64,000 nucleotides of DNA from Sulfitobacter sp. (GCA_029252045.1 JAQXCD010000004.1:5675-69674), one strand, 5' to 3'. Shown: positions 1,333 through 61,043, numbered from the stretch's first letter. Translations and numbers: made by a program. Notes: generated from the letters alone by a model not told the origin.

Positions 1333-2722
1333 GCGGGCAGGCCGCTTCCTCACCGGCTCTACTCTCGGGCATGTGGTGCGGATGACAGCCACCGGTGCGC
1401 TGGGCATCACGTTTGTGTTTGTCGTGGATGCGGCGAACCTGCTGTGGGTGAGCCAGCTGGGTGACAGGCAGCTGGTGGCGGCCATCGGGTTTGCCTATGC
1501 GGTGCAATTCTTTTCGGTCTCGATTGCAGTGGGGCTGATGATTGCGGCTACGGCTGTGGTGTCGCGCAGTATTGGCGCGGGGGATCGCGACAAGGCGCGC
1601 CGTCAGGCGGGTGCGGCTGTGGTGATCGCCGCGTGCACACTGGCGGTTGTCTCGGCTTTGATCGTTCTATTCCGTCAGCAGTTGGTAGGCTGGGCTGGTG
1701 CCGAGGGCGAGACGGCGCGGCTGGCGGCCCGCTATCTGGCGATAAGCATTCCCTCCTTGGTGCCGATGTCGGCTGCACTTGTAATGTCGGGAACATTGCG
1801 TGCGGACGGCTACGGGGCGAAGGCGATGTATGTGACGCTTCTGGCGGGCGTGGTACTGCTGATCATTGATCCCTTTCTGATCTATTATTCCGGCTGGGGG
1901 CTGGACGGTGTTGCGGTAGGTCTGGTGCTGTTTCGTTTTGCGCTGCTGGCGCTTGCAGTGCGTTTTGCCATCATCGAGATGAACCTGATTGACCGCCCGC
2001 GGCTGAGCACGTTGCGCAATATCGGCGCGCCCTTTGTTGCTGTGGCCATCCCTGCAATTGCGACACAGATGAGCACACCTGTGGGCAACTACCTGTTGAC
2101 CCGGGTGATGGCCCCTTACGGCGATGATGCCGTGGCTGCATGGGCGGTGGTTGGGCGGCTGACGGTGGTGGTGTTTGGCGGTATATTTGCGCTGTCGGGG
2201 GCAATTGGTGGCATCTTCGGCCAGAACTTTGGCGCGGGGCAGATGGAGCGTGTGCGCAGCACCTACCGCGATGCGCTGGTATTTTGCCTGATTTATACGC
2301 TGGTCGCCTGGGGCCTTTTTGTGCTGCTGGTGCCCTATATCATCGCCGCGTTTGATCTGAGCGGGCAGGGCGCGGATGTGTTGAATGCCTTTGCGGTGAT
2401 CGGAGTGGGCGGGTTTATTTTCTTTGGCGCGCTGTTTGTGTCGAATGCTGCGTTTAACAATCTGGGCAAGCCGGGCCGCTCGACTTTGGTGAACTGGACC
2501 AAGGACGGCGTTCTGAGCCTGCCAGCGGCGCTGTGGTTCGCGGGCATTTTCGGCGCTGCGGGTGTGATTTATGGCCAAGCGGCCGCAGGGATTGTCGTTG
2601 GTGCGGTTTCGGCCACTTGGGGCTGGTTTTATGTAAAGGGGCTTAGGCCTGTAGATGCGGTTGCCCTTGACCCTGCCGCACCAGCGCCCTACCCGAACCC
2701 TGACAGACACAGGAGCCGATAG
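1329..2722 (+). pseudogene. MATE-family efflux transporter, frameshifted near the start (or 1-nt sequencing error)
   Basis: ATG at 1329 overlaps the MFS stop (ATGA) and reads MSGQ. The MATE body (GRFLTGSTLGHVVRMT...GQNFGAG) is in another frame. One extra G at 1340-1341 would restore MSGQGRFLTGS. Confidence 0.65.
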
Positions 2723-3595
2723 ATGCCAACCTTTACCGCACTGACCACGCTGACAGGCCGCGAGCCTGCCTATACTTTGGGCGAAGCCATGGAGGCATTG
2801 AACCCTGAGCCGACAGGTGTGGGTGTTTTCGAGATGGAAGACGGCTCCGGCCTGTGGGAAGTCGGCGGATATTTCGAGGAAGCGCCGGATGAGGCGGCGT
2901 TGGCCGTGCTTGCAGCCGCATTGGGGGCAAAGCCCTTTGTGGTGTCAGAGTTGCCCGAGACAGATTGGGTTGCACATGTGCGCCGCGAGCTGGCGCCCGT
3001 CGAGGCGGGACGCTTTTTTGTCTATGGTTCACATGATGCGGATAAAGTGCCGGCCGATTGCGAGCCGCTGTTGATCGAGGCGGCAATGGCATTTGGTACG
3101 GGCCACCATGGCACGACGCTGGGCTGCTTGAAGGCGTTGGACATGCTGGCGAACGACGGATTTGTGGGCAAACGTGTGGTGGACATCGGCTGTGGTACAG
3201 CCGTGTTGGCCATGGGCGCTGCAAGGATCTGGGCGGATACCGTTCTGGCGTCTGACATTGACGAAGTCGCTGTAGATGTGGCGCGTGCCAATGTTGTGGC
3301 AAACGGGCTGGAGGGCCGTGTCAATTGTGTCGAGGCCGCAGGCTTTGATCATCCCTCACTGGCAGAGGCCGCGCCCTTTGATCTGGTGTTCGCCAATATC
3401 CTCAAGGGACCCCTGATTGCACTGGCCCCTGATATGGCGTGCGTGATGGCGGCCGATGGCTATGCGATTCTTTCGGGTATCCTGAACGAGCAGGCAGACG
3501 AAGTGATTGGCGTTTATGCACAGTCTGGCATCAATCTACACCATCGCGAGAGCATTGGTGACTGGACGACAATAGTGCTTCGGAAAATGACCTAG
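2723..3595 (+). CDS. prmA: 50S ribosomal protein L11 methyltransferase
   Basis: AMAFGTGHHGTT, VVDIGCGTAVLA and FANIL motifs. Confidence 0.92.
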   Translation: MPTFTALTTLTGREPAYTLGEAMEALNPEPTGVGVFEMEDGSGLWEVGGYFEEAPDEAALAVLAAALGAKPFVVSELPETDWVAHVRRELAPVEAGRFFVYGSHDADKVPADCEPLLIEAAMAFGTGHHGTTLGCLKALDMLANDGFVGKRVVDIGCGTAVLAMGAARIWADTVLASDIDEVAVDVARANVVANGLEGRVNCVEAAGFDHPSLAEAAPFDLVFANILKGPLIALAPDMACVMAADGYAILSGILNEQADEVIGVYAQSGINLHHRESIGDWTTIVLRKMT

Positions 3596-50872: not shown

Positions 50873-52540
50873 GTGCGCGCCACATTTCGTAGTTTTACCA
50901 AGACCCTAACGCCCAAAGACGTGACTGATCTGCGTTGGATGGGGGAGAACGGCTTTTCGGTCAGCCGGATGCGGATTGAATTGCTGTCGGGGCTGACCGT
51001 CGCACTGGCGTTGGTGCCCGAAGCGGTGGCCTTTGCCTTTGTAGCGGGGGTGCATCCGCTGGTTGGGCTTTATGCGGCGTTTCTGGTGGGTTTGATCACG
51101 GCGCTGATCGGGGGCCGTCCGGGCATGATCTCGGGGGCGACAGGGGCGCTGGCGGTGGTGATGGTGGCTTTGGTCGCTCAACACGGCGTTGAATATCTGT
51201 TTGCGACCGTGGTTCTGATGGGGCTTTTGCAGATTTTTGCAGGGGTCATGCAATTGGGCAAGTTCATACGGCTGGTGCCACATCCGGTGATGTTGGGCTT
51301 TGTGAATGGCCTCGCGATTGTGATTTTTCTGGCGCAGATGGGGCAGTTCAAGGTGCCCGGATCGATGGTGGATACAGGCCATGGCATGGGCGGCGGTGAG
51401 TGGTTGTCGGGGATGCCTTTGGCGTTGATGCTGATGCTGGTCGCGGCAACGATGGCGATTATCTGGGTGATGCCGCGCATCACGAAACTGATCCCTGCAC
51501 CGCTGGCGGGTATTGGTATTGTGGCGGCTGTAGTGATCTTCACCGGCATGGATGTGCCGCGTGTGGGGGATCTGGCGTCGATTCAGGGCGGTTTGCCCAG
51601 CTTCCACAATCCGTTTGGCACGGGCATGGGGCTTTATGGCACGGCGCTGGCGCCGATGAATATGGAAACCCTTTATATTATTGCACCTTACGCGGTGATC
51701 CTGGCGGCAATTGGTCTGATTGAATCGCTGCTGACGCTGAACCTTGTGGGCGATATGACCAACACGCGCGGTGGTGCCAGCCAGGAATGTGTGGCGCAGG
51801 GTGTGGCCAATACGGTGACCGGATTTTTCGGCGGCATGGGTGGCTGTGCGATGATCGGCCAATCGATGATCAACGTGAAATCAGGGGGGCGCACGCGGGT
51901 CGCAGGCATTGCGGCGGCTGTGTTCTTGTTGCTGTTTATCGTTGTTGCCTCGCCTCTGATCGAGCTGATCCCGCTGGCCGCGCTGGTGGGGGTGATGTTC
52001 ATGGTAGTGATCGGCACGTTTGCGTGGAACAGCCTCACCATCCTGCGCAAGGTGCCGTTGACGGATGCCTTTGTCATCCTGCTGGTGACGGTTGTGACGG
52101 TCTACAAGGACCTTGCGGTGGCCGTTGTCGTGGGGGTGATTGTTAGCGCGCTGGCCTACGCGTGGAACAATGCGCGCCGCATCCATGCCAAGACCTATGT
52201 GACACCCGAAGGGGCCAAAGTGTACCAGCTGCAGGGGCCGCTGTTCTTCGGCTCTGCCGCCGGCTTTGTGGAGCTGTTCGACATCCACAATGACCCGGAT
52301 GTTGTTGTGGTAGATTTCAATGACAGCCGCGTTGTGGACCAATCCGCGCTGCAAGCGATTGAAGCGATTGCAGGCAAATACGAGGACGCGGGCAAGCGAA
52401 TCGAGCTGCGCCATCTGACCCGTGATTGCCATGCCTTGCTGACCAAAGCGGGTCACCTGATGATCGACAGCGACGATGATCCTGACTACCAGATTGCGGT
52501 GGATTATCAGGTGCGCACGGGGGTTCTGGGCGGACACTAA
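50873..52540 (+). CDS. SulP-family anion transporter with C-terminal STAS domain
   Basis: GGRPGMISGATG, GGMGGCAMIGQS and GPLFFGS motifs; AGGAGG ribosome binding site with GTG start. Confidence 0.92.
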   Translation: MRATFRSFTKTLTPKDVTDLRWMGENGFSVSRMRIELLSGLTVALALVPEAVAFAFVAGVHPLVGLYAAFLVGLITALIGGRPGMISGATGALAVVMVALVAQHGVEYLFATVVLMGLLQIFAGVMQLGKFIRLVPHPVMLGFVNGLAIVIFLAQMGQFKVPGSMVDTGHGMGGGEWLSGMPLALMLMLVAATMAIIWVMPRITKLIPAPLAGIGIVAAVVIFTGMDVPRVGDLASIQGGLPSFHNPFGTGMGLYGTALAPMNMETLYIIAPYAVILAAIGLIESLLTLNLVGDMTNTRGGASQECVAQGVANTVTGFFGGMGGCAMIGQSMINVKSGGRTRVAGIAAAVFLLLFIVVASPLIELIPLAALVGVMFMVVIGTFAWNSLTILRKVPLTDAFVILLVTVVTVYKDLAVAVVVGVIVSALAYAWNNARRIHAKTYVTPEGAKVYQLQGPLFFGSAAGFVELFDIHNDPDVVVVDFNDSRVVDQSALQAIEAIAGKYEDAGKRIELRHLTRDCHALLTKAGHLMIDSDDDPDYQIAVDYQVRTGVLGGH

Positions 52541-52652
52541 CGCCGTTGTCTAATTCGTCGTTCGGAAGACTCGACAAACCGGTATGATCTTGCTAATGGC
52601 GGGGTTCCTGCAAATCATTGCAACTCTTTTCTAGAAAGGTGGTGAAAACCAC

Positions 52653-52853
52653 ATGCAGGTTAGTGTTCGTGACAACAATGTCGATCAGGCGCTTCGTGCC
52701 CTGAAAAAGAAACTGCAACGCGAAGGCGTTTTTCGTGAAATGAAGCTTAAGCAACATTTCGAGAAACCGTCCGAGAAAAAAGCGCGTAATAAAGCAGAAG
52801 CAATCCGTCGTTCGCGTAAATTGGCGCGTAAGAAGTTGGAGCGCGAAGGGTAA
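52653..52853 (+). CDS. rpsU: 30S ribosomal protein S21
   Basis: [25 protein letters not shown]...FEKPSEKK. Confidence 0.96.
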
Positions 52854-52883
52854 GAACTTTACTCTTTTCTTTGACACGATTTC

Positions 52884-52924
52884 GAAACCCCCGTGGCCTT
52901 CTGGCGGCGGGGGTTTTGTTTTGG
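52884..52924 (+). terminator. Intrinsic terminator after rpsU
   Basis: AAACCCCCG...CGGGGGTTTT stem followed by GTTTTGG. Confidence 0.7.
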
Positions 52925-53276
52925 GGCGCAGTGGACGGTTGTAATGTCGATTGCATTGATGCGGCGTATTTTTGCATTCGTCTTAAAGGGCGGCGTCGCG
53001 GAGTACTGCCTCAAAGCTAATCGGTTTTGCCCCAAACCGGACCTTTAGAGCGGATTGGGGTAGAGGTCTGCAATGCGGACAAAGCGGCCCTTGACACCCG
53101 AGGGACAAACGGCTGCTTTCATAAGTTACATCCGCACCGAGAAATGAAGATGGCAATAAGTGACCAAACTCTACTTGAGGCAAAATTTGATCTATGCTGT
53201 GCAAGCGCAACCTAGAGCCATTCTTTCAAGTGCTTTACATAGCTGCAAATGATTACGCCCCCCCTGAATGCTGCCT

Positions 53277-54755
53277 TCAACGCATGACGAAGGGGTTTGC
53301 CATTGGGCTGTCAGACGTATTGATCCAAGTGGTTTTAGTGCGCGTGTAGTCATGAATTGCGTCGATGCCAGCCTCCCGTCCGTATCCAGACTGATTATAG
53401 CCGCCGAACGGTGCAATAGGAGAAATGGCCCGGTAGGTATTCACCCAGCAAATACCCGCCTTCAACAACTTAGACACGCGATGCGCACGCGCGAGGTTTT
53501 GCGTGAATACGCCCGAACCCAATCCAAAAGGCGTATCGTTGGCAAGGGCAATGGCCTCTTCTTCCGTGTCAAAAGAAATCAGTGACATCACGGGGCCAAA
53601 CATCTCGACCCTAAGCGTCTCGGTGTCCGTGCCTGTGCATTCAACCAGGGTAGGGGGCATATAGTTGCCAGTCTGCGCAAGTGGCGCGCCACCAAAGTGG
53701 ATTTTCGCGCCTTGCGTTTTTGCGATGACCAGTGTTGTCACGATCTTATTGATCTGCGCCGCCGTGCAAACGGGGCCAAGGTGCGAGTGGCTGTCCATTG
53801 GGTCACCCACAATAATATGCGCGGCCTTCTCGGTGATTTTCGCAATGAGCGCATCGAGGATTGGACGGTGAATAAGTCCCCGCGACCCTGCGACACAGCT
53901 TTGCCCAGAAGCGCCGAAATTGCCCGCGATCAGACCATTTGCGGCGCCCTCCAAATCGGCGTCGTCAAAGACAAGAATCGGGGATTTCCCACCCAACTCA
54001 AGCGAGGTCACGGCGAAGTTTTCAGCAGAATTGCGCACGACATGCTTTGCGGTTTCTGGTCCGCCCGTAAACGCGATCCTGTCAACATCGGGGTGCCGTG
54101 TCAGCGGGATTGCGCAATTTTCAGCGTCGCCAGTGATGATCGAAACGACGCCCTCGGGAAAGCCGGCTCGCTCGATCAATTTGGCAAACGCGAGCATCGG
54201 AGCAGGGGCTACTTCTGACGCTTTTAAAACCACTGCGCAGCCAGCGGCAAGTGCAGGCCCGAGCTTGGTTGCCGTTAGAAACATCTGGGCGTTCCACGGC
54301 ACGATCGCCACCACAACACCGATAGGTTCGCGGCGCGTGAAGACATGCATATCGGGTTTATCTATCGGCAGCACCGCGCCTTCGATCTTATCAGCAAGGC
54401 CCGCATAGTAGCGGTAATAGTCTCCGACATAGGCTGTTTGTGTTGATGTTTCGGCCAGTAACTTGCCACTATCTGTGGTTTCCAGACGGCCCAGTTCTTG
54501 CGCGTTTTCCTCAATCAGTTCCGCAAGACGATATAGCAGCTTGCCGCGCTTCGTCTGGGTCATATCGCGCCATGCTGGATCATTCAGCGCCCGCCGCGCA
54601 GCGGCTATCGCGCGGTCTACATCAGCAGGGGCAGCACAAGCAAACGTCGCCCAATCCTGACCTGTCGCAGGGTTTTGGGTTGCCATCGTCTGGCCCGTAT
54701 CTCCGTCAGTCCAAGCGCCATCGATATACATCTGAAAATGTGGAAGCTGTGTCAT
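53277..54755 (-). CDS. Aldehyde dehydrogenase (TgnC-like)
   Basis: PWN, FTGG, LELGGKSP, catalytic GQSCVAG, EMFGPV and the C-terminal MANPFVMR typical of this subfamily. Confidence 0.9.
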   Translation of the reverse strand: MTQLPHFQMYIDGAWTDGDTGQTMATQNPATGQDWATFACAAPADVDRAIAAARRALNDPAWRDMTQTKRGKLLYRLAELIEENAQELGRLETTDSGKLLAETSTQTAYVGDYYRYYAGLADKIEGAVLPIDKPDMHVFTRREPIGVVVAIVPWNAQMFLTATKLGPALAAGCAVVLKASEVAPAPMLAFAKLIERAGFPEGVVSIITGDAENCAIPLTRHPDVDRIAFTGGPETAKHVVRNSAENFAVTSLELGGKSPILVFDDADLEGAANGLIAGNFGASGQSCVAGSRGLIHRPILDALIAKITEKAAHIIVGDPMDSHSHLGPVCTAAQINKIVTTLVIAKTQGAKIHFGGAPLAQTGNYMPPTLVECTGTDTETLRVEMFGPVMSLISFDTEEEAIALANDTPFGLGSGVFTQNLARAHRVSKLLKAGICWVNTYRAISPIAPFGGYNQSGYGREAGIDAIHDYTRTKTTWINTSDSPMANPFVMR

Positions 54756-54763
54756 GTTGGTCC

Positions 54764-55798
54764 TCATGTGAAAGCGGGCATTACTTCGTCGATGAACCGC
54801 CCAAGCGAGGCGCGTTTGCGCTCGGAACTCATACCGCTATCGATCCAGAATGCATATTCGTCATACCCCAAATCCTCATAGCGTTTAATTTTGTCGATCA
54901 CCTGCTGCGTTGTGCCAATCGTCAAGTCATGCAGCATATTCTCTGGCGACATCATGGTATTTGCTGCGATTTCATCTTGGGTCAAAGTTTCGATTAATCC
55001 CTGACTGACGGGGCGCTTGTTTTGAAACCAAGCCCCAAAATAACAGTAGAATTCTGACAACTCTTTGGCGGCCAACGCGACATCATCGGTATCTGCACCG
55101 ACGTATGTGTGATGCAGCAACATGATTTTTGGGCGAGGCCCACTGAAGGCCGCACAGGCATCGTTGAACTTTGTCATAAGGCTTTCGATTTCAGTCATCC
55201 CTTGCCAAAGAGGGGTCACTTGAATGTTGAAACCGTTATCGACGCCAAAAGCGTGACTATTGGCATCTCGCGCTGCGATCCAGATTGGCGGGCCGTCGGG
55301 TTGCACCGGTTTTGGCGCAGAGGTAGTTGCAGGAAACTGGTAGTAATGCCCCTCATGCGCACAATCACCTGCCCATAGCTGGCGTAGCAATGGGGCAGAC
55401 TCCCGCATTCTCTGACCTGCGTCCCACGCATCCATTCCGGGCCGCAGACGTTCGTATTCGTAGGAATAAGCCCCCCGCGCGATGCCAAGCTCGATCCGTC
55501 CGTCGGTAATCAAATCTGCAGCCGCAGCTTCGCCTGCGAGTGCAATCGGATGCCAGAATGGTGCAATCACCGTCCCTGTGCCAAGCCGTAGGTGTTTGGT
55601 GTGATAGCTGAGGTCGACAAGGCTCATGAACGGGTTGGGCGCGATCGTAAAATCCATCCCGTGATGTTCGCCTGTCCAAATCGCCCGCATGCCGCCTTCG
55701 TCAGCCATCTTGGCCAGCGCAATCAGATCACTGCGCAATACGCGCTGATCTTGGTCGGGGCAGATCCGTTCCATATGTGCAAAAAGCGAGAAATCCAT
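54764..55798 (-). CDS. Luciferase-like (LLM) flavin-dependent monooxygenase, TgnB-like oxygenase component
   Basis: FSLF.HMER, WTGEHHGMDFTIAPNPF, PFWHPI.LAGE, ARGAYSYEYER and FWIDSGMS, all recalled from trigonelline monooxygenase TgnB. Confidence 0.85.
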   Translation of the reverse strand: MDFSLFAHMERICPDQDQRVLRSDLIALAKMADEGGMRAIWTGEHHGMDFTIAPNPFMSLVDLSYHTKHLRLGTGTVIAPFWHPIALAGEAAAADLITDGRIELGIARGAYSYEYERLRPGMDAWDAGQRMRESAPLLRQLWAGDCAHEGHYYQFPATTSAPKPVQPDGPPIWIAARDANSHAFGVDNGFNIQVTPLWQGMTEIESLMTKFNDACAAFSGPRPKIMLLHHTYVGADTDDVALAAKELSEFYCYFGAWFQNKRPVSQGLIETLTQDEIAANTMMSPENMLHDLTIGTTQQVIDKIKRYEDLGYDEYAFWIDSGMSSERKRASLGRFIDEVMPAFT

Positions 55799-55801
55799 GG
55801 G

Positions 55802-56725
55802 CTACTTCCTTGTTGTCGCAGTGTGGATTGCACCGTCTTCGGTGTCTCCAAGGTAAAGGGCAAAATTTCGGGTCCGGTGCTCAAGCGCGAAACGGGACAT
55901 CATCCGCGCAATAGGCGCGCTGGCGAAAGTCTGGTTGGTAAGGTCTGCGATTGGCACGGCGACGATCCCATCAGTGGGTGTCTCAATATGACCCGTCGCC
56001 AAAAAATACGTGTAATGCGCACGCGGTTTTACACTCTCAAAAACCGAATAGGCTTGGCCAAGATCGGCCACGATCCCTTTGCTGACGAGTGTCTCGCGCA
56101 GGTCATTGATCAACCGCCCCCTTTCTAAGTGGGTGCAATGCGGTGGTCGCAGTCCGTCCGCGGTTTGAACCATCAAGACAGTGTCGTCATCCTCAACAAT
56201 CGCGCCGCAAATCGCCGTGCCGCCTGTCTCTTCAAAAGCCGCACGCTCTAATCCAAGGCTAAAATATTGTCCGTTGACGTAACCAAGCCCCGCCCCCGTG
56301 TTGTGGGTAAACTCATGCACCCTCCCGATCAGGATGCAGTGGTCACCCGCAGGAATTATCTGTTCCGCGCTGCATGAAAATTGTGCGACAGCCCCGTCGA
56401 TCAACGGCACGCCATGCGCGTCAAGTTGATGTGGCACTTGTGCAAACCTGTCGCCCTTAAAACTTGCGAAGATGTTCGAAATTGCCTCTTGTCCCTCGGA
56501 TAGAGTATTGACGGCAAAATGCGTGCATTTGGCAAAGGTGTCGTAGCTCGACAAAAACTTGCCAGGGCAAACTAGCAAAAGTGGCGGGTCAAGCGATACT
56601 GACGAAAATGAATTTGCGGTAAACCCAACAGGGGTGCCGTCATCGCGAACTGCCGTTACGACAGTCACACCCGTTAGAAAACCACCAAAGGCATTGCGGA
56701 GGGCACGTGGATCAATTTGTGTCAA
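55802..56725 (-). CDS. Flavin reductase with a C-terminal extra domain (TgnA-like reductase component)
   Basis: LRNAFGGFLTGVTVVT, ANSFSSVSLDPPL and GDHCILIG, followed by about 140 further aa. Confidence 0.85.
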   Translation of the reverse strand: MTQIDPRALRNAFGGFLTGVTVVTAVRDDGTPVGFTANSFSSVSLDPPLLLVCPGKFLSSYDTFAKCTHFAVNTLSEGQEAISNIFASFKGDRFAQVPHQLDAHGVPLIDGAVAQFSCSAEQIIPAGDHCILIGRVHEFTHNTGAGLGYVNGQYFSLGLERAAFEETGGTAICGAIVEDDDTVLMVQTADGLRPPHCTHLERGRLINDLRETLVSKGIVADLGQAYSVFESVKPRAHYTYFLATGHIETPTDGIVAVPIADLTNQTFASAPIARMMSRFALEHRTRNFALYLGDTEDGAIHTATTRK

Positions 56726-57500
56726 TTTGCGTGTCCCGAATGAACGTTTCTAAAATCTCGGTCACCTGCGTCGCATGGGTCATCGGCAGCATGTGCGCAG
56801 CCTTTTTCAAAACGACTGACGTGCCTTTTGGGGCCAGCGCTGCCATCCGCTGGGACATCTGCGGCGTTGAATTTGGTTCGTCTTCGCCTGTCAAAAACAA
56901 TGCAGGACAGCGGAGGTTTTCGAGCGCCTGCCCGGATGGACCATCCTGAGCCGCAAACACACGGTAGGCATCGCGGTAGCCAACGGGATCGACCCCGCAG
57001 AGCCATTCTTGGCAAGCGTCCTGCGCCGCTGACGGCGCTGCATCAAACCAGCGGAGGAGCGTCGCGGTTGGATCGGCCATTGTCTTGCCATCCAAACTTG
57101 CGGCACGCGCCAAGACAGCATCTTTTGCGGCGGTATCTCGCTGGAAAATACCATTGAGTGCGGCAACCCCATGCACCAGATCAGGATACCTGTCGGCCAT
57201 ATCCAAAGCGATCATTGCACCAAAAGAGTGGCCAATCACGACCGCTGGCTTCGTCAGGATCGCTGCAATTGCATCGGTGAAATCGGCCAACTGCGGATGA
57301 CCCGCGAGGCGATCACTTTCCCCATGTCCAGGCATGTCAACGGCCAGAACACGACAGGTCTGCGCCAACGCCTGCAATTGCCCACCCCACGCTTCGGCCC
57401 GCAAACCGACGCCGTGAACCAGTAAGACATTTAGCCCTGACCCGCCTGTGATTGCGGCAAGCGACCCGAACTTAGACCGCGGCTGGGTTGTCCAAGTCAT
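56712..57500 (-). CDS. Alpha/beta hydrolase (TgnD-like)
   Basis: LVHGVG, DMPGHG, GHSFG nucleophile elbow, TGEDEPNSTP and AAHM. Confidence 0.85.
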   Translation of the reverse strand: MTWTTQPRSKFGSLAAITGGSGLNVLLVHGVGLRAEAWGGQLQALAQTCRVLAVDMPGHGESDRLAGHPQLADFTDAIAAILTKPAVVIGHSFGAMIALDMADRYPDLVHGVAALNGIFQRDTAAKDAVLARAASLDGKTMADPTATLLRWFDAAPSAAQDACQEWLCGVDPVGYRDAYRVFAAQDGPSGQALENLRCPALFLTGEDEPNSTPQMSQRMAALAPKGTSVVLKKAAHMLPMTHATQVTEILETFIRDTQIDTN

Positions 57501-58071
57501 GACCCAAATCCTTCAAATCTTGGTATCTGTCGCCAATACGATGATGTGGACGCCCACTTGTCGCGGCACCCAACACAACAACGATTTCGTTGTCGCGCGG
57601 CGCATCCGGGATCGCGAATTGGATTGTCAGGTAGTGGGAGCGGCGACCGGCGTCATTCTTATCCATCAGCGGCACCATGATCGGCGCATTCGCACCGCCG
57701 CGCGTGTTTGTGAAGGCGAGATAGGATTTTGCACCGACGGCCTCCCGGTAATGATTGCCGAACCGCAATGTGTGGATCAGCCCGGACGCGTGTTCAATCT
57801 CGCCATTTAGCCCGACAACGGCAGCTTTGCCGTAAGCTTCGATCGCGTCACCTGAGCCTGCGAGTTTGATCATCCGGTCTGTCAATATCTCGCCCAAAAC
57901 GGGTCCATATGCATGAATTTCTGGGGTTAGATCCTCGACAAACCGACCCACCCATGGGTTACGCACAACGGCGGCCACGGCGAACAAGCGCCACGGTTTT
58001 TCGGCTGGGCGAAATCCCTCGATTAGAACCTCTTCATCGTAGGTCACAATTTTTCGAATTTCCGGATGCAT
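57472..58071 (-). CDS. Amino acid synthesis family protein (DUF1185)
   Basis: IRKIV, AAVVRNPW.G, EAYGKAAVVG.NGEIEHAS and DAPRDNEIVV motifs. Confidence 0.88.
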   Translation of the reverse strand: MHPEIRKIVTYDEEVLIEGFRPAEKPWRLFAVAAVVRNPWVGRFVEDLTPEIHAYGPVLGEILTDRMIKLAGSGDAIEAYGKAAVVGLNGEIEHASGLIHTLRFGNHYREAVGAKSYLAFTNTRGGANAPIMVPLMDKNDAGRRSHYLTIQFAIPDAPRDNEIVVVLGAATSGRPHHRIGDRYQDLKDLGHDLDNPAAV

Positions 58072-58153
58072 GCCGACGTCTCCCTTTGGTGTTATGGCAA
58101 AGTATCAAACGCGGGTGCCCAATTTGACAAATGAATGATTATGAGGCTTAGGT

Positions 58154-58168
58154 ATTAGCATTACTAAT
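58154..58168. promoter_or_regulatory. GcvA-type LysR recognition site
   Basis: Perfect ATTA-N7-TAAT overlapping the LysR start, in the divergent intergenic region. Confidence 0.55.
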
Positions 58169-59033
58169 GGGTGACTTGACCATGATGAAAGCTTTACCGC
58201 CGCTCGCATGGTTTCGCGCGTTCGAAGCTGCGGCTCGTAAACTCAGCTTTACCGCTGCGGCCGAAGAAATTGGCATGACCCAATCTGCCGTCAGCCAACA
58301 TGTCAGGTCGCTGGAGACATCACTTGGTGTCGCCTTGTTTATCCGCCGTGCACGCGGGCTCTCGCTTACGGATGACGGGCGCAAGTTATTGCCTCAAGTG
58401 GGCTCGGCACTTGAAACGCTGACCGCCGCGGCCCGCGCGTTTGAGACGGTGCACACTGAAAACGTATTGACCATCGCCACATCGGTCAGTGTCGCACAAT
58501 GGATTATTTCGCCATATCTTTCTGATTTCACGCAAAGCCACCCGAACATACGAATGCGATTTCTAAGCACAATTTGGCCAGACGACTTTCACACTGTCAG
58601 AGCGGACATCGAAATTCCGTTCGGATCACAAAAACAAGTGGGCCGCGACGCAATTATGTTGGAACCCAACGATCTGATCGCGTTGAAATCACCGACCCTG
58701 AAAGGCAGCATCGAAGCATTGCCATTGATTGAGTCGGTAGGCACCTCTGACGGTTGGAAAACATGGGGTGAGGTCGTTGGTGGAGACCCCAAGCCCGAGC
58801 TATTCGTTGACAGTTACGGCGCGGCGCTGAACCTTGCCGTTCATGGTAATGGTATTGCACTTGTGAGCAGAATATTAGCCCAACATGCATTGCACGCAAA
58901 ACAACTCGAATTAGCCCACACAGCCAGGGCCCCTTGCAAGGAGGGCTATTTCTTGAGGGTCAATGAGGCCAAACCCATAGCGTTACAATTTCGAGACTGG
59001 CTGCTTGGCAGAATCGAAAGAGGTAATAGGTAA
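58167..59033 (+). CDS. LysR-family regulator (GcvA subfamily)
   Basis: FRAFEAAARKLSFTAAAEEIGMTQSAVSQHVRSLE helix-turn-helix; divergent from the operon. Confidence 0.92.
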   Translation: MGDLTMMKALPPLAWFRAFEAAARKLSFTAAAEEIGMTQSAVSQHVRSLETSLGVALFIRRARGLSLTDDGRKLLPQVGSALETLTAAARAFETVHTENVLTIATSVSVAQWIISPYLSDFTQSHPNIRMRFLSTIWPDDFHTVRADIEIPFGSQKQVGRDAIMLEPNDLIALKSPTLKGSIEALPLIESVGTSDGWKTWGEVVGGDPKPELFVDSYGAALNLAVHGNGIALVSRILAQHALHAKQLELAHTARAPCKEGYFLRVNEAKPIALQFRDWLLGRIERGNR

Positions 59034-59245
59034 ATTCATTTCTAGCCCCCAATTAATGCCCAAGAGAAAGTTAGAAACGCTACAAATTGCACCTTGAACC
59101 AACTTGGTGGTTTTTATCTCAACTGGTTCAGTGAGTTTCCCGATACCGGACCTTCGCTGCGACACAGAAACTGTTTCATCGGGCTAAAACCTACCGTTCG
59201 CTGCATCGGGCGCGAAGGGCGGTTTTTTCATTTTGTGTCAGTGTC

Positions 59246-59848
59246 CTAGGTTATCATAAACACATCGTAGCGGGTGGATTTGCCCAGTATCTGGTGTGAG
59301 CAGGGGCGGATGCCTGCGATCGGGTCTGCTTTGGCGGGCCATTTCAGCACCACGCGGTTGCTGGCATTCTCCAGTGCTACGCGCAGCAGGTCGGCGGCGT
59401 CGTCATCGGTGCCGACAATCTCGCGCACTTGGCGCAACTCTTTTTTGACCAGCGCGGAGTTTGTGCGGGGCGGGTGCATCGGATCGATCAGCACGGCCTC
59501 GCCGCCCAATCCGGGCAGCAGGTCTTTGGCGTCGCCGTGCAGCAGGGTCATGCGGCTGATGATCTGGGCCAATTCTCCGCCTTCGGCAGCAGCGCGTTCC
59601 ATGCCGGCCCGCAGGAGGGCGTGCATCTGCGCCGAGCGTTCGATCAATGTGACCTGCGCACCCAGTGACGCCAGCAGGAAGGCATCGCGCCCGAGGCCTG
59701 CTGTGGCATCCACCACAAAGGGCGTTTTGCCGGCGCGCAGGCCCATGGCCTTGGGCAAATCCTGTCCGCGCCCGCCGCCGAACCGCAAGCGGTGGGCGAC
59801 GGGGCCGGAGATAAAATTAACCTCAAGGGGGGCAGCTTTTTGCGTCAT
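59246..59848 (-). CDS. RsmJ-like class I SAM-dependent methyltransferase
   Basis: VVDATAGLGRDAFLLAS, IDPMHP and RVVLKWP motifs. Confidence 0.8.
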   Translation of the reverse strand: MTQKAAPLEVNFISGPVAHRLRFGGGRGQDLPKAMGLRAGKTPFVVDATAGLGRDAFLLASLGAQVTLIERSAQMHALLRAGMERAAAEGGELAQIISRMTLLHGDAKDLLPGLGGEAVLIDPMHPPRTNSALVKKELRQVREIVGTDDDAADLLRVALENASNRVVLKWPAKADPIAGIRPCSHQILGKSTRYDVFMIT

Positions 59849-59863: not shown

Positions 59864-60469
59864 TCAATCATCGGGCCGGATGATCTCGAACACTTCGCGC
59901 ACAACGGAATAGTCGCGGTATCCCAAACGGCTGAGCGGGGCGTAGCGCGTCACGTCAAAGCGGCCATCGATGACGCAATCATCGCGCATGTGCACGCCAA
60001 TGACTTCGCCAAAGCAGACAAAATTCGCCTCACCCTCGATCTGGACGATCTGGGTCATACGGCATTCAAGCGAAGCAGGGGCATTGCCCACCCGCGAACA
60101 GGCGATCTGTTCACATTCGGCTTTCTCAATCCCTGCATGGGCAAATTCATCCGTGCCATGGGGCAGGGTGGCAGAGGATTTGTTCATTGCATCAGCGGCG
60201 GCATATTCGACGATGTTCACGCAGAACACGCCTGTGTCGCGGATGTTGGCCATGGTGTCCTTGGTGCCCTGCACGTCGTCTTTCACACCAGTGGAGGCAA
60301 ACATGACCTGAGGTGGGACATAGGCCACACCGTTGAAGAAGGAATAGGGGGCGATGTTGTCACGCCCTTGGGCGTCGCGGGTCGAAATCCAGCCGATCGG
60401 CCGCGGGGTGACAATGGCGTTAAACGGGTTGTGCGGCAGGCCGTGGCCATCTGCGGGGCGGTAGAACAT
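59864..60469 (-). CDS. Flavin reductase family protein (DIM6/NTAB)
   Basis: PFNAIVTPRPIGWIST, NIAPYSFFN and LSRLGY motifs. Confidence 0.88.
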   Translation of the reverse strand: MFYRPADGHGLPHNPFNAIVTPRPIGWISTRDAQGRDNIAPYSFFNGVAYVPPQVMFASTGVKDDVQGTKDTMANIRDTGVFCVNIVEYAAADAMNKSSATLPHGTDEFAHAGIEKAECEQIACSRVGNAPASLECRMTQIVQIEGEANFVCFGEVIGVHMRDDCVIDGRFDVTRYAPLSRLGYRDYSVVREVFEIIRPDD

Positions 60470-60557
60470 GGTGTGCAACTCTCTGTTGTGATTGAACACA
60501 GAGCTAACGCCGTGATAGGCCGCTGACCAGAAGAAATCCCGCCGGAGACCCGCACCC

Positions 60558-61043
60558 TTGTACGAGATTGCCGCAGAGACACCTGAAGACCTTTGGGAAG
60601 TAGAGGCGTTGTACGACACATGTTTCGCGCCCGGGCGCACGGCATTGTCGTCTTACCGCCTGCGTGAAGGTGTACCCCCTGTGGCGGGTCTGAGCCTTGT
60701 GGCGCGGGACGATCTGGGGATTCTGGCGGGGGCGATCCGGTTCTGGCCTGTGTTGGTCGGCGGGCATGCCAGTTTGTTATTGGGGCCGGTGGCCGTGCAT
60801 CCGACGCGACAGGGCGAGGGCCTTGGCGGTCTGCTGATCGAGACCTCGCTGGAGCGCGCAGGGCCGGAGGGCTGGGACCGTGTGATGCTGGTGGGGGATG
60901 CGCCTTATTACAACCGCTACGGCTTTACCCGGCTTGAGGGTGTGATCATGCCGCCGCCCACCAATCCGGACCGCGTTCTGGGCCGCGCGCTGAGCGATGG
61001 TGCGTGGGATGGAATTGCGGGCGAGGTCACGCGCGTCCGTTGA
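60558..61043 (+). CDS. GNAT N-acetyltransferase (YhbS-like)
   Basis: FAPGR...YRLREG, LLGPVAVHPTRQGEGLG and VGDAPYY.RYGF motifs. Confidence 0.87.
   Translation: MYEIAAETPEDLWEVEALYDTCFAPGRTALSSYRLREGVPPVAGLSLVARDDLGILAGAIRFWPVLVGGHASLLLGPVAVHPTRQGEGLGGLLIETSLERAGPEGWDRVMLVGDAPYYNRYGFTRLEGVIMPPPTNPDRVLGRALSDGAWDGIAGEVTRVR

Follow-up and report, generated by a model that had tools for sequence, protein, structure and literature searches.

What does a compact six-gene module in the genome of an uncultured Sulfitobacter degrade, and how is it related to the described pathways for N-methylpyridinium compounds? The module lies in a 64,000-nucleotide stretch of assembly GCA_029252045.1 (JAQXCD010000004.1:5675–69674), hereafter the window; all positions are counted from its first letter. 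An initial annotation, made from the sequence alone, had read positions 53277–59033 as a catabolic operon for trigonelline, homarine or an undescribed relative, placed under a LysR regulator. Our analysis indicates that this stretch is probably a LysR-regulated tgnF-D-A-B-C operon by which trigonelline (N-methylnicotinate), an osmolyte widespread in algae and plants, would be broken down aerobically. The cluster is a member of the known trigonelline pathway in a distinct and widespread LysR-controlled marine sub-lineage; it is neither a new pathway nor a homarine operon.

Five genes on the minus strand make up the operon. The first of them (57472–58071) encodes a TgnF-like protein of 199 amino acids (aa) belonging to the DUF1185/AA_synth family (PF06684, E 8e-72). 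It is followed by genes for a TgnD-like alpha/beta hydrolase of 262 aa (56712–57500; Pfam Abhydrolase_6 and Abhydrolase_1, nucleophile elbow GHSFG), a TgnA-like NAD(P)H:flavin reductase of 307 aa (55802–56725; PF01613, Flavin_Reduct, at residues 14–157), and a TgnB-like luciferase-like (LLM) flavin monooxygenase of 344 aa, the putative ring-opening oxygenase (54764–55798; PF00296, Bac_luciferase, E 3e-46). The last gene (53277–54767) encodes a TgnC-like NAD(P)-dependent aldehyde dehydrogenase (ALDH) of 496 aa (PF00171, Aldedh, E 3e-154), in which the catalytic motifs ELGGK and GQSCVA were both found. The genes for F and D overlap by 29 bp, those for D and A by 14 bp, and those for B and C by 4 bp, while A and B are separated by 3 bp. 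A divergent gene on the plus strand (58167–59033) codes for a GcvA-like LysR-family regulator of 288 aa with HTH_1 and LysR_substrate domains; its top NCBIfam model is GcvA, with 185 bits against a cutoff of 288. All genes of the module are of full length when set against their homologues. The open reading frames (ORFs), the Pfam assignments and the full-length homologues agree with the earlier description of five packed or overlapping, intact minus-strand genes facing a GcvA-type LysR gene. The genome contains one TgnB-like gene and one DUF1185 gene.

The trigonelline pathway was reportedly solved by Perchat and co-workers in 2018 in Acinetobacter baylyi ADP1 (tgnR/tgnFDABC-P-E). Seen via the corresponding A. 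baumannii locus (L015), the ADP1 cluster shares with the window the five protein families, the F-D-A-B-C order, the tight coupling of the genes, the long reductase of about 310 aa, and the signature residues of the oxygenase. It differs in having the GntR regulator TgnR and linked TgnP and TgnE, while the window has a LysR/GcvA-like regulator and neither of the two linked genes. The order F-D-A-B-C is identical in Acinetobacter (L015), Sinorhizobium meliloti (L016), Leisingera (L017), and Pantoea (L019), in keeping with the proposal of the initial annotation that the enzyme set (DUF1185, hydrolase, reductase, LLM, and ALDH) is that of the Tgn pathway. The A. baumannii locus consists of a small divergent regulator gene, genes for DUF1185, hydrolase, reductase, LLM, and ALDH, two further genes of 468 and 389 aa, and another ALDH gene; the NCBI name of its oxygenase orthologue group is [quoted passage not shown]. 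The S. meliloti locus, situated on pSymA between noeB and nifB, has the same five genes in the same order and adds genes for a GntR regulator, a NIPSNAP protein, a four-gene ATP-binding cassette (ABC) importer, and succinate-semialdehyde dehydrogenase (SSADH). The nifB region of pSymA is the one where the trc genes of trigonelline catabolism were reportedly mapped by genetic means by Boivin and co-workers in about 1990–91.

All five proteins of the window are nearer to this canonical, GntR-controlled group than to the sister lineages, represented by Agrobacterium fabrum pAtC58 (L018), a Mesorhizobium loti plasmid (L020), and islands of Rhodobacterales. The oxygenase is 61% identical to that of A. 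baumannii, 63% to that of S. meliloti pSymA, and 67% to that of Leisingera, versus 40–41% for the sister lineage of A. fabrum pAtC58 and M. loti. For the DUF1185 protein, identity amounts to 66% with A. baumannii and 70% with S. meliloti (64–70% across canonical copies). Identity of the dehydrogenase is 54% with A. baumannii and 57% with S. meliloti, one sister lineage also reaching 51–55%. The hydrolase shows 36–40% identity with canonical copies and 27–28% with sister-lineage copies, and the reductase 39–41% with canonical copies, which belong to an equal length class (308–313 aa). With respect to A. baumannii in particular, the hydrolase (36%) and the reductase (39%) are distant, and the module falls in a clade of its own, whose stems are long for C and D. 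In the reductase, the C-terminal half (approximately residues 160–307, about 150 aa) gave no Pfam match at E up to 10; this extension has equal length in all canonical and LysR-type copies.

The sister lineages share the protein families with the window; however, their oxygenases are only 35–42% identical to the window protein, their gene order is rearranged, being A-C-B-D in A. fabrum and M. loti, and they have other regulators and other linked transporters. In A. fabrum, a ProX-type betaine ABC importer lies next to the cluster, which further includes carboxymuconolactone-decarboxylase-like, NIPSNAP, and AA_synth genes. The lineage of L018 and L020 probably acts on another betaine-like compound. 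As for the motifs listed for TgnB in the initial annotation, HMER, GEHHGMDFTIAPNPF, and FWIDSGMS were all located in the oxygenase of the window; slight variants of them are found in the orthologues of Acinetobacter, Sinorhizobium, Pantoea, and Leisingera, and none was found in the sister lineage with 40% identity.

The oxygenase has thousands of homologues, the closest of which (80–94% identity) come from marine Rhodobacterales; IMG labels some of these [quoted passage not shown]. One metagenome contig has the same LysR plus five-gene layout, and the KEGG Orthology names given to its genes in IMG are TgnA, TgnB, TgnC, and TgnD. The four enzymes of the window are 66–81% identical to those of the IMG-labelled syntenic cluster, and the DUF1185 protein is 89% identical. 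The hydrolase homologue (66%) is named (E)-2-((N-methylformamido)methylene)succinate hydrolase in IMG, the reductase homologue (67%) trigonelline monooxygenase reductase component, and the dehydrogenase homologue (81%) MFMB dehydrogenase. In PDB, nothing nearer to TgnB than generic luciferase-like enzymes was found. The DUF1185 protein with a solved structure, SPO0826 (2qtp), is a paralogue rather than the orthologue, and a DUF1185 search in 14 control genomes gave no match.

In a careful phylogenetic tree of the oxygenase, the LysR-type clade was monophyletic (100/100), was split from the sister lineages (100/100), and was placed inside the GntR-type clade in every bootstrap tree. The tree that had been proposed as a check for the protein encoded at 54764–55798 accordingly puts it within or beside the TgnB clade and apart from the sister lineages. 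A quick tree of the hydrolase united the LysR and GntR types in one clade versus the sister lineages with support of 99 in the Shimodaira–Hasegawa-like approximate likelihood ratio test (SH-aLRT). The dehydrogenase grouped with the canonical clade at only 76% support. Orthology of the reductase to TgnA is only weakly resolved.

Residue conservation was compared at the columns invariant in the GntR type. Of 131 such columns in the oxygenase, the LysR type retains 89% with no fixed switches, versus 50–57% retained in the sister lineages. In addition, 33 signature columns, often occupied by Arg, His, Tyr, or Trp, are common to the LysR and GntR types and never occur in the sisters. In the dehydrogenase, 75% of the GntR-invariant columns are retained and 27 fixed switches occur; in the hydrolase, 64% are retained. 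By these counts, the oxygenase, which would be the first enzyme to meet the substrate, seems to have stayed the same, whereas divergence has affected the enzymes that follow it and the regulator.

The distribution of the two types was analyzed in 401 Rhodobacterales genomes including that of the window (G000), 400 of them with a completeness of 90% or more and a contamination of 5% or less. Oxygenase identities fell into two bands: 45 genomes had a copy at 72–100% and 51 genomes a copy at 61–70%, and none had both. Among the 40 loci inspected, those of the upper band all had LysR with F-D-(A)-B-C, and those of the lower band all had GntR with F-D-A-B-C. The regulator was LysR at all 16 loci with at least 72% oxygenase identity and GntR at all 19 loci with 61–70%. 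Both types are present in the genus of the window. GntR-type Roseobacter clusters (for instance those of a Leisingera caerulea plasmid, L017, and of three congeners) have the host group, the gene order, and the enzymes in common with the window, with an oxygenase identity of 67%; however, they have the other regulator, and identity in D, A, and C is 39–57%. In C and D, these Roseobacter GntR-type copies are nearer to the Acinetobacter copies than to the window type.

The LysR type is common in the Roseobacter group and in further marine Alphaproteobacteria. Its named carriers include Sulfitobacter, Tateyamaria, Yoonia, Octadecabacter, Ruegeria atlantica, Phaeobacter italicus, Planktomarina, Roseibium/Labrenzia, and Nitratireductor, and Phaeobacter italicus CECT 7645, Ruegeria faecimaris DSM 28009, Roseibium album CECT 5095, and Octadecabacter dasysiphoniae are among the cultured strains with such a locus; a tgn-type locus of Ruegeria pomeroyi was not among the 80 closest named loci. 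Across about 97 related loci, a LysR homologue occupied the divergent position in 79, the six genes of the module were the sole recurrent genes, and no transporter or SSADH family recurred in the flanks. The minimal version lacking a linked transporter and a linked SSADH, which the initial annotation had described for this one locus, therefore holds throughout the LysR-type sub-lineage. A SulP gene near the module is not conserved beside the cluster in other genomes; its product falls into one cluster, at 90% identity or more, with proteins of Sulfitobacter, which identifies the host as an uncultured member of this genus. An SSADH gene unlinked to the module is located on another contig of the genome (G000:C22:19800–21269), and its product is 66% identical to the tgn-linked SSADH of S. 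meliloti. Within the module, conservation is highest for the DUF1185 protein, with 75–92% identity within the LysR-type lineage across genera (loci L021–L035).

Several further observations concern the LysR-type loci and the related genes. The cluster of DUF1185 proteins at 90% identity has 501 members from several genera. Five LysR-type loci (L025, L026, L027, L029, and L033) have no reductase gene, the hydrolase gene either abutting the oxygenase gene or being separated from it by a gap without a reductase match; the oxygenase must therefore use an unlinked flavin reductase there. In L029, the DUF1185 gene is missing too. At locus L103, in a metagenome-assembled genome of Rhizobiaceae (OZ223237.1), the oxygenase groups with the LysR type but the best dehydrogenase belongs with the GntR type; the cluster could be a recombinant, or the extraction could have taken in another ALDH. 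In the genome of the window, contig C37 has a match at 2537–3412 to residues 206–496 only of the TgnC-like protein (53% identity); neither the N-terminal part of the dehydrogenase nor an LLM gene was found in the first 8 kb of this contig. The match may be what remains of a gene from a cluster of a sister lineage.

Several points weigh against trigonelline as the substrate of the module. The canonical anchors, A. baumannii L015 and S. meliloti pSymA L016, stand in for the ADP1 proteins. The divergent gene of the window is LysR/GcvA-like and not a GntR-family TgnR; since the regulator family differs, the inducer might differ as well. In the approximately unbiased (AU) test, a position of the oxygenase just outside the canonical clade was not rejected (p 0.105), and the quick trees of D and C placed the LysR type beside the canonical clade, as its sister, rather than within it. 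The hydrolase (36–40%), the reductase (39–41%), and the dehydrogenase (54–57%, 27 fixed switches) diverge about as much as some sister-lineage enzymes do. The lack of genomes with both types, versus approximately 5.7 expected under independence, speaks for a common function, but this comparison ignores shared ancestry and is thus only suggestive. Finally, the literature yielded no experimental study of a LysR-type member.

It is possible, though rather unlikely in our estimation, that the LysR lineage applies the same ring-opening chemistry to a different but related N-heterocyclic compound, perhaps another marine N-methylpyridinium compound, and responds to a different inducer, with the dehydrogenase, hydrolase, and regulator adapted to it; N-methylnicotinamide, N-methylisonicotinate, and a substituted trigonelline are candidates. 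The far stronger divergence of C, D, and A than of B and F from the canonical proteins, with the 27 fixed switches in C, would fit such a change, as would the long stems of the LysR-type clade in the D (1.09) and C (0.9) trees and a regulator of another family. However, the fixed switches in C are for the most part conservative (I/L, A/G, V/T), and the oxygenase keeps 89% of the invariant positions and the 33 shared signature columns with zero fixed switches. No genome combined the LysR and GntR types, which suggests that they do the same job, whereas lineages of true paralogues are met alongside the LysR type: sister lineages with 35–40% oxygenase identity were present beside it in two genomes (G076 and G405), and these probably act on other substrates. 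It is highly improbable that the module is a generic two-component monooxygenase cluster with no relation to N-methylpyridinium betaines, acting for example on an ester, a lactone, or a sulfonate and resembling tgn at the family level only. Such a cluster would agree with the finding that the five operon proteins fall below every curated NCBIfam cutoff and with the RefSeq name of the homologues outside Acinetobacter, which is just “LLM class flavin-dependent oxidoreductase”; nevertheless, the five-gene synteny is colinear, B, C, and F are 54–70% identical to the proteins of the Acinetobacter and S. meliloti clusters, and the oxygenase is within or beside the canonical clade, 100/100 apart from the sister lineages.

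Degradation of homarine (N-methylpicolinate) by the operon of the window can hardly be credited either, in spite of homarine being a positional isomer of trigonelline and abundant in seawater. The initial annotation had mentioned a related operon serving homarine use in marine bacteria including R. pomeroyi; the published homABCDER operon turned out to be unrelated, its core being built from other protein families (Ferrer-Gonzalez et al. 2026, PMC13236597). The two systems are alike in the degradation of an N-methylpyridinium carboxylate and in having a terminal aldehyde dehydrogenase, and marine hom copies can have a LysR-type regulator. However, hom encodes HomA with an FAD motif, HomB of unassigned family, peptidase-like HomC, and ALDH-like HomD, while the families in the window are LLM, Flavin_Reduct, alpha/beta-hydrolase, and DUF1185, with none of the core HomA/HomB/HomC. 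The hom paper likens HomA/HomB to TgnA/TgnB, but by analogy only, and the hom products are N-methylglutamate and glutamate (PMC13236597). These products do not match the Tgn-type chemistry outlined below. A TgnAB mechanism was considered sterically unlikely on homarine (Heal et al. 2021). On contig C3 of the same genome (4996–10856), genes were found for a LysR regulator, a RidA-like protein, a 241-aa DUF3726 protein, a 558-aa protein without a Pfam family, and a BCCT transporter, together with an M19-peptidase-like fragment at the contig end. This set, with a LysR gene of its own, is a probable hom-type operon. The idea that hom is a Tgn paralogue, its “peptidase” being an alpha/beta hydrolase, was dropped on finding the DUF3726, the 558-aa orphan, and the M19-like genes together on C3. 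The hom-type set and the steric argument together make homarine an unlikely substrate of the operon described here. Of the three options left by the initial annotation, trigonelline is thus clearly favoured, and homarine and an undescribed relative have little support.

If the window operon does serve trigonelline breakdown, its working can be outlined by homology to the A. baylyi pathway, with the chemistry reportedly established by Perchat and co-workers. Trigonelline would be taken up by an unlinked transporter. The LysR protein would sit on an ATTAG-N5-CTAAT dyad and, with the inducer, activate the divergent operon promoter. The TgnA-like reductase would supply reduced flavin, with which, together with O2, the TgnB-like LLM oxygenase would open the pyridinium ring. 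The ring-opened product would be oxidised by the TgnC-like aldehyde dehydrogenase, and the TgnD-like hydrolase would then release succinate semialdehyde, methylamine, formate, and CO2. The unlinked SSADH on contig C22 would convert succinate semialdehyde to succinate, perhaps with the help of the DUF1185 protein. The DUF1185 protein is reported to assist the SSADH TgnE. The role of this protein may exceed helping TgnE, since it is highly conserved in loci without a linked SSADH; it may have a core catalytic role that was not revealed by the work in Acinetobacter.

Regulatory signals were searched for in the 95-bp intergenic spacer between the operon and the regulator gene, with the shared control region delimited at 58101–58168 by a consensus scan and by conservation across LysR-type loci. 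The ATTAG-N5-CTAAT dyad (58154–58168) overlaps the start codon of lysR and is present in 21 of the 23 LysR-type loci compared, which represent many genera. A TTGACAA box (58124–58130) is located exactly 30 bp upstream of the dyad in 19 of these loci; the remaining spacer sequence has no conservation among them. On the opposite strand, this box is the -35 element of a candidate operon promoter found by the consensus scan on the minus strand (-35 TTGTCA, 58130–58125; 18 bp; -10 GATACT, 58106–58101). By our estimate, the likely start of the operon is some 70 bp downstream of the dyad. Such a position is the classical layout of a LysR-type activator that also represses its own gene. The promoter is a predicted one, and trigonelline is the presumed inducer. 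An Rfam scan of 52400–59400 gave no match.

The module with its non-coding ends occupies 52933–59252, as delimited by comparison with empty sites. In one congener (G440, locus L147), window segments 52589–52932 (rpsU with its terminator) and 59253–59822 (rsmJ) align approximately 18 bp apart, and in another (G005, locus L149) rpsU adjoins rsmJ. The adjacency of rpsU and rsmJ in these two genomes means that the window holds a 6.3-kb insertion. In a third congener (G183), DNA homology is confined to 53277–59003, with 76% identity and a different neighbourhood. The LysR version moves as a compact six-gene cassette. The G+C content of the cluster is 54.7%, compared to 58.2% for the genome (3.08 Mb, 68 contigs) and about 59–61% for the flanks, which confirms the lower value noted earlier from the sequence; it fits acquisition by transfer. 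Neither an integrase nor an insertion sequence was found at the module, and no genome-wide copies of either flanking spacer were detected. As a candidate flanking repeat, the best pair (19 nt, 84%, at 53027 and 59136) was rejected as insignificant (BLAST E about 0.07).

Outside the module, the left flank is rpsU, encoding ribosomal protein S21 (52653–52853, plus strand, identified by translation) and followed by a terminator hairpin at 52885–52916. The right flank is a gene for an RsmJ-like 16S rRNA methyltransferase (59246–59848, minus strand; PF04445, RsmJ model below its cutoff). A second, unrelated Flavin_Reduct ORF (59864–60640, minus strand) is located just upstream of rsmJ. This ORF was not beside rsmJ in the nine congener loci compared (L141–L149), so the right flank itself may be variable.

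Roseobacter-group bacteria thus encode one of two versions of the pathway, controlled by either GntR or LysR, in about a quarter of the 401 sampled genomes. Knowing which marine bacteria use trigonelline aids the reading of metabolite fluxes in the ocean. The finding of two versions serves the annotation of these genomes and the choice of strains, and it leaves the known chemistry unchanged; the points with a wider reach are the identity of the substrate of the LysR lineage, which would probably be trigonelline, and the role of the DUF1185 protein, which may go beyond assisting TgnE.

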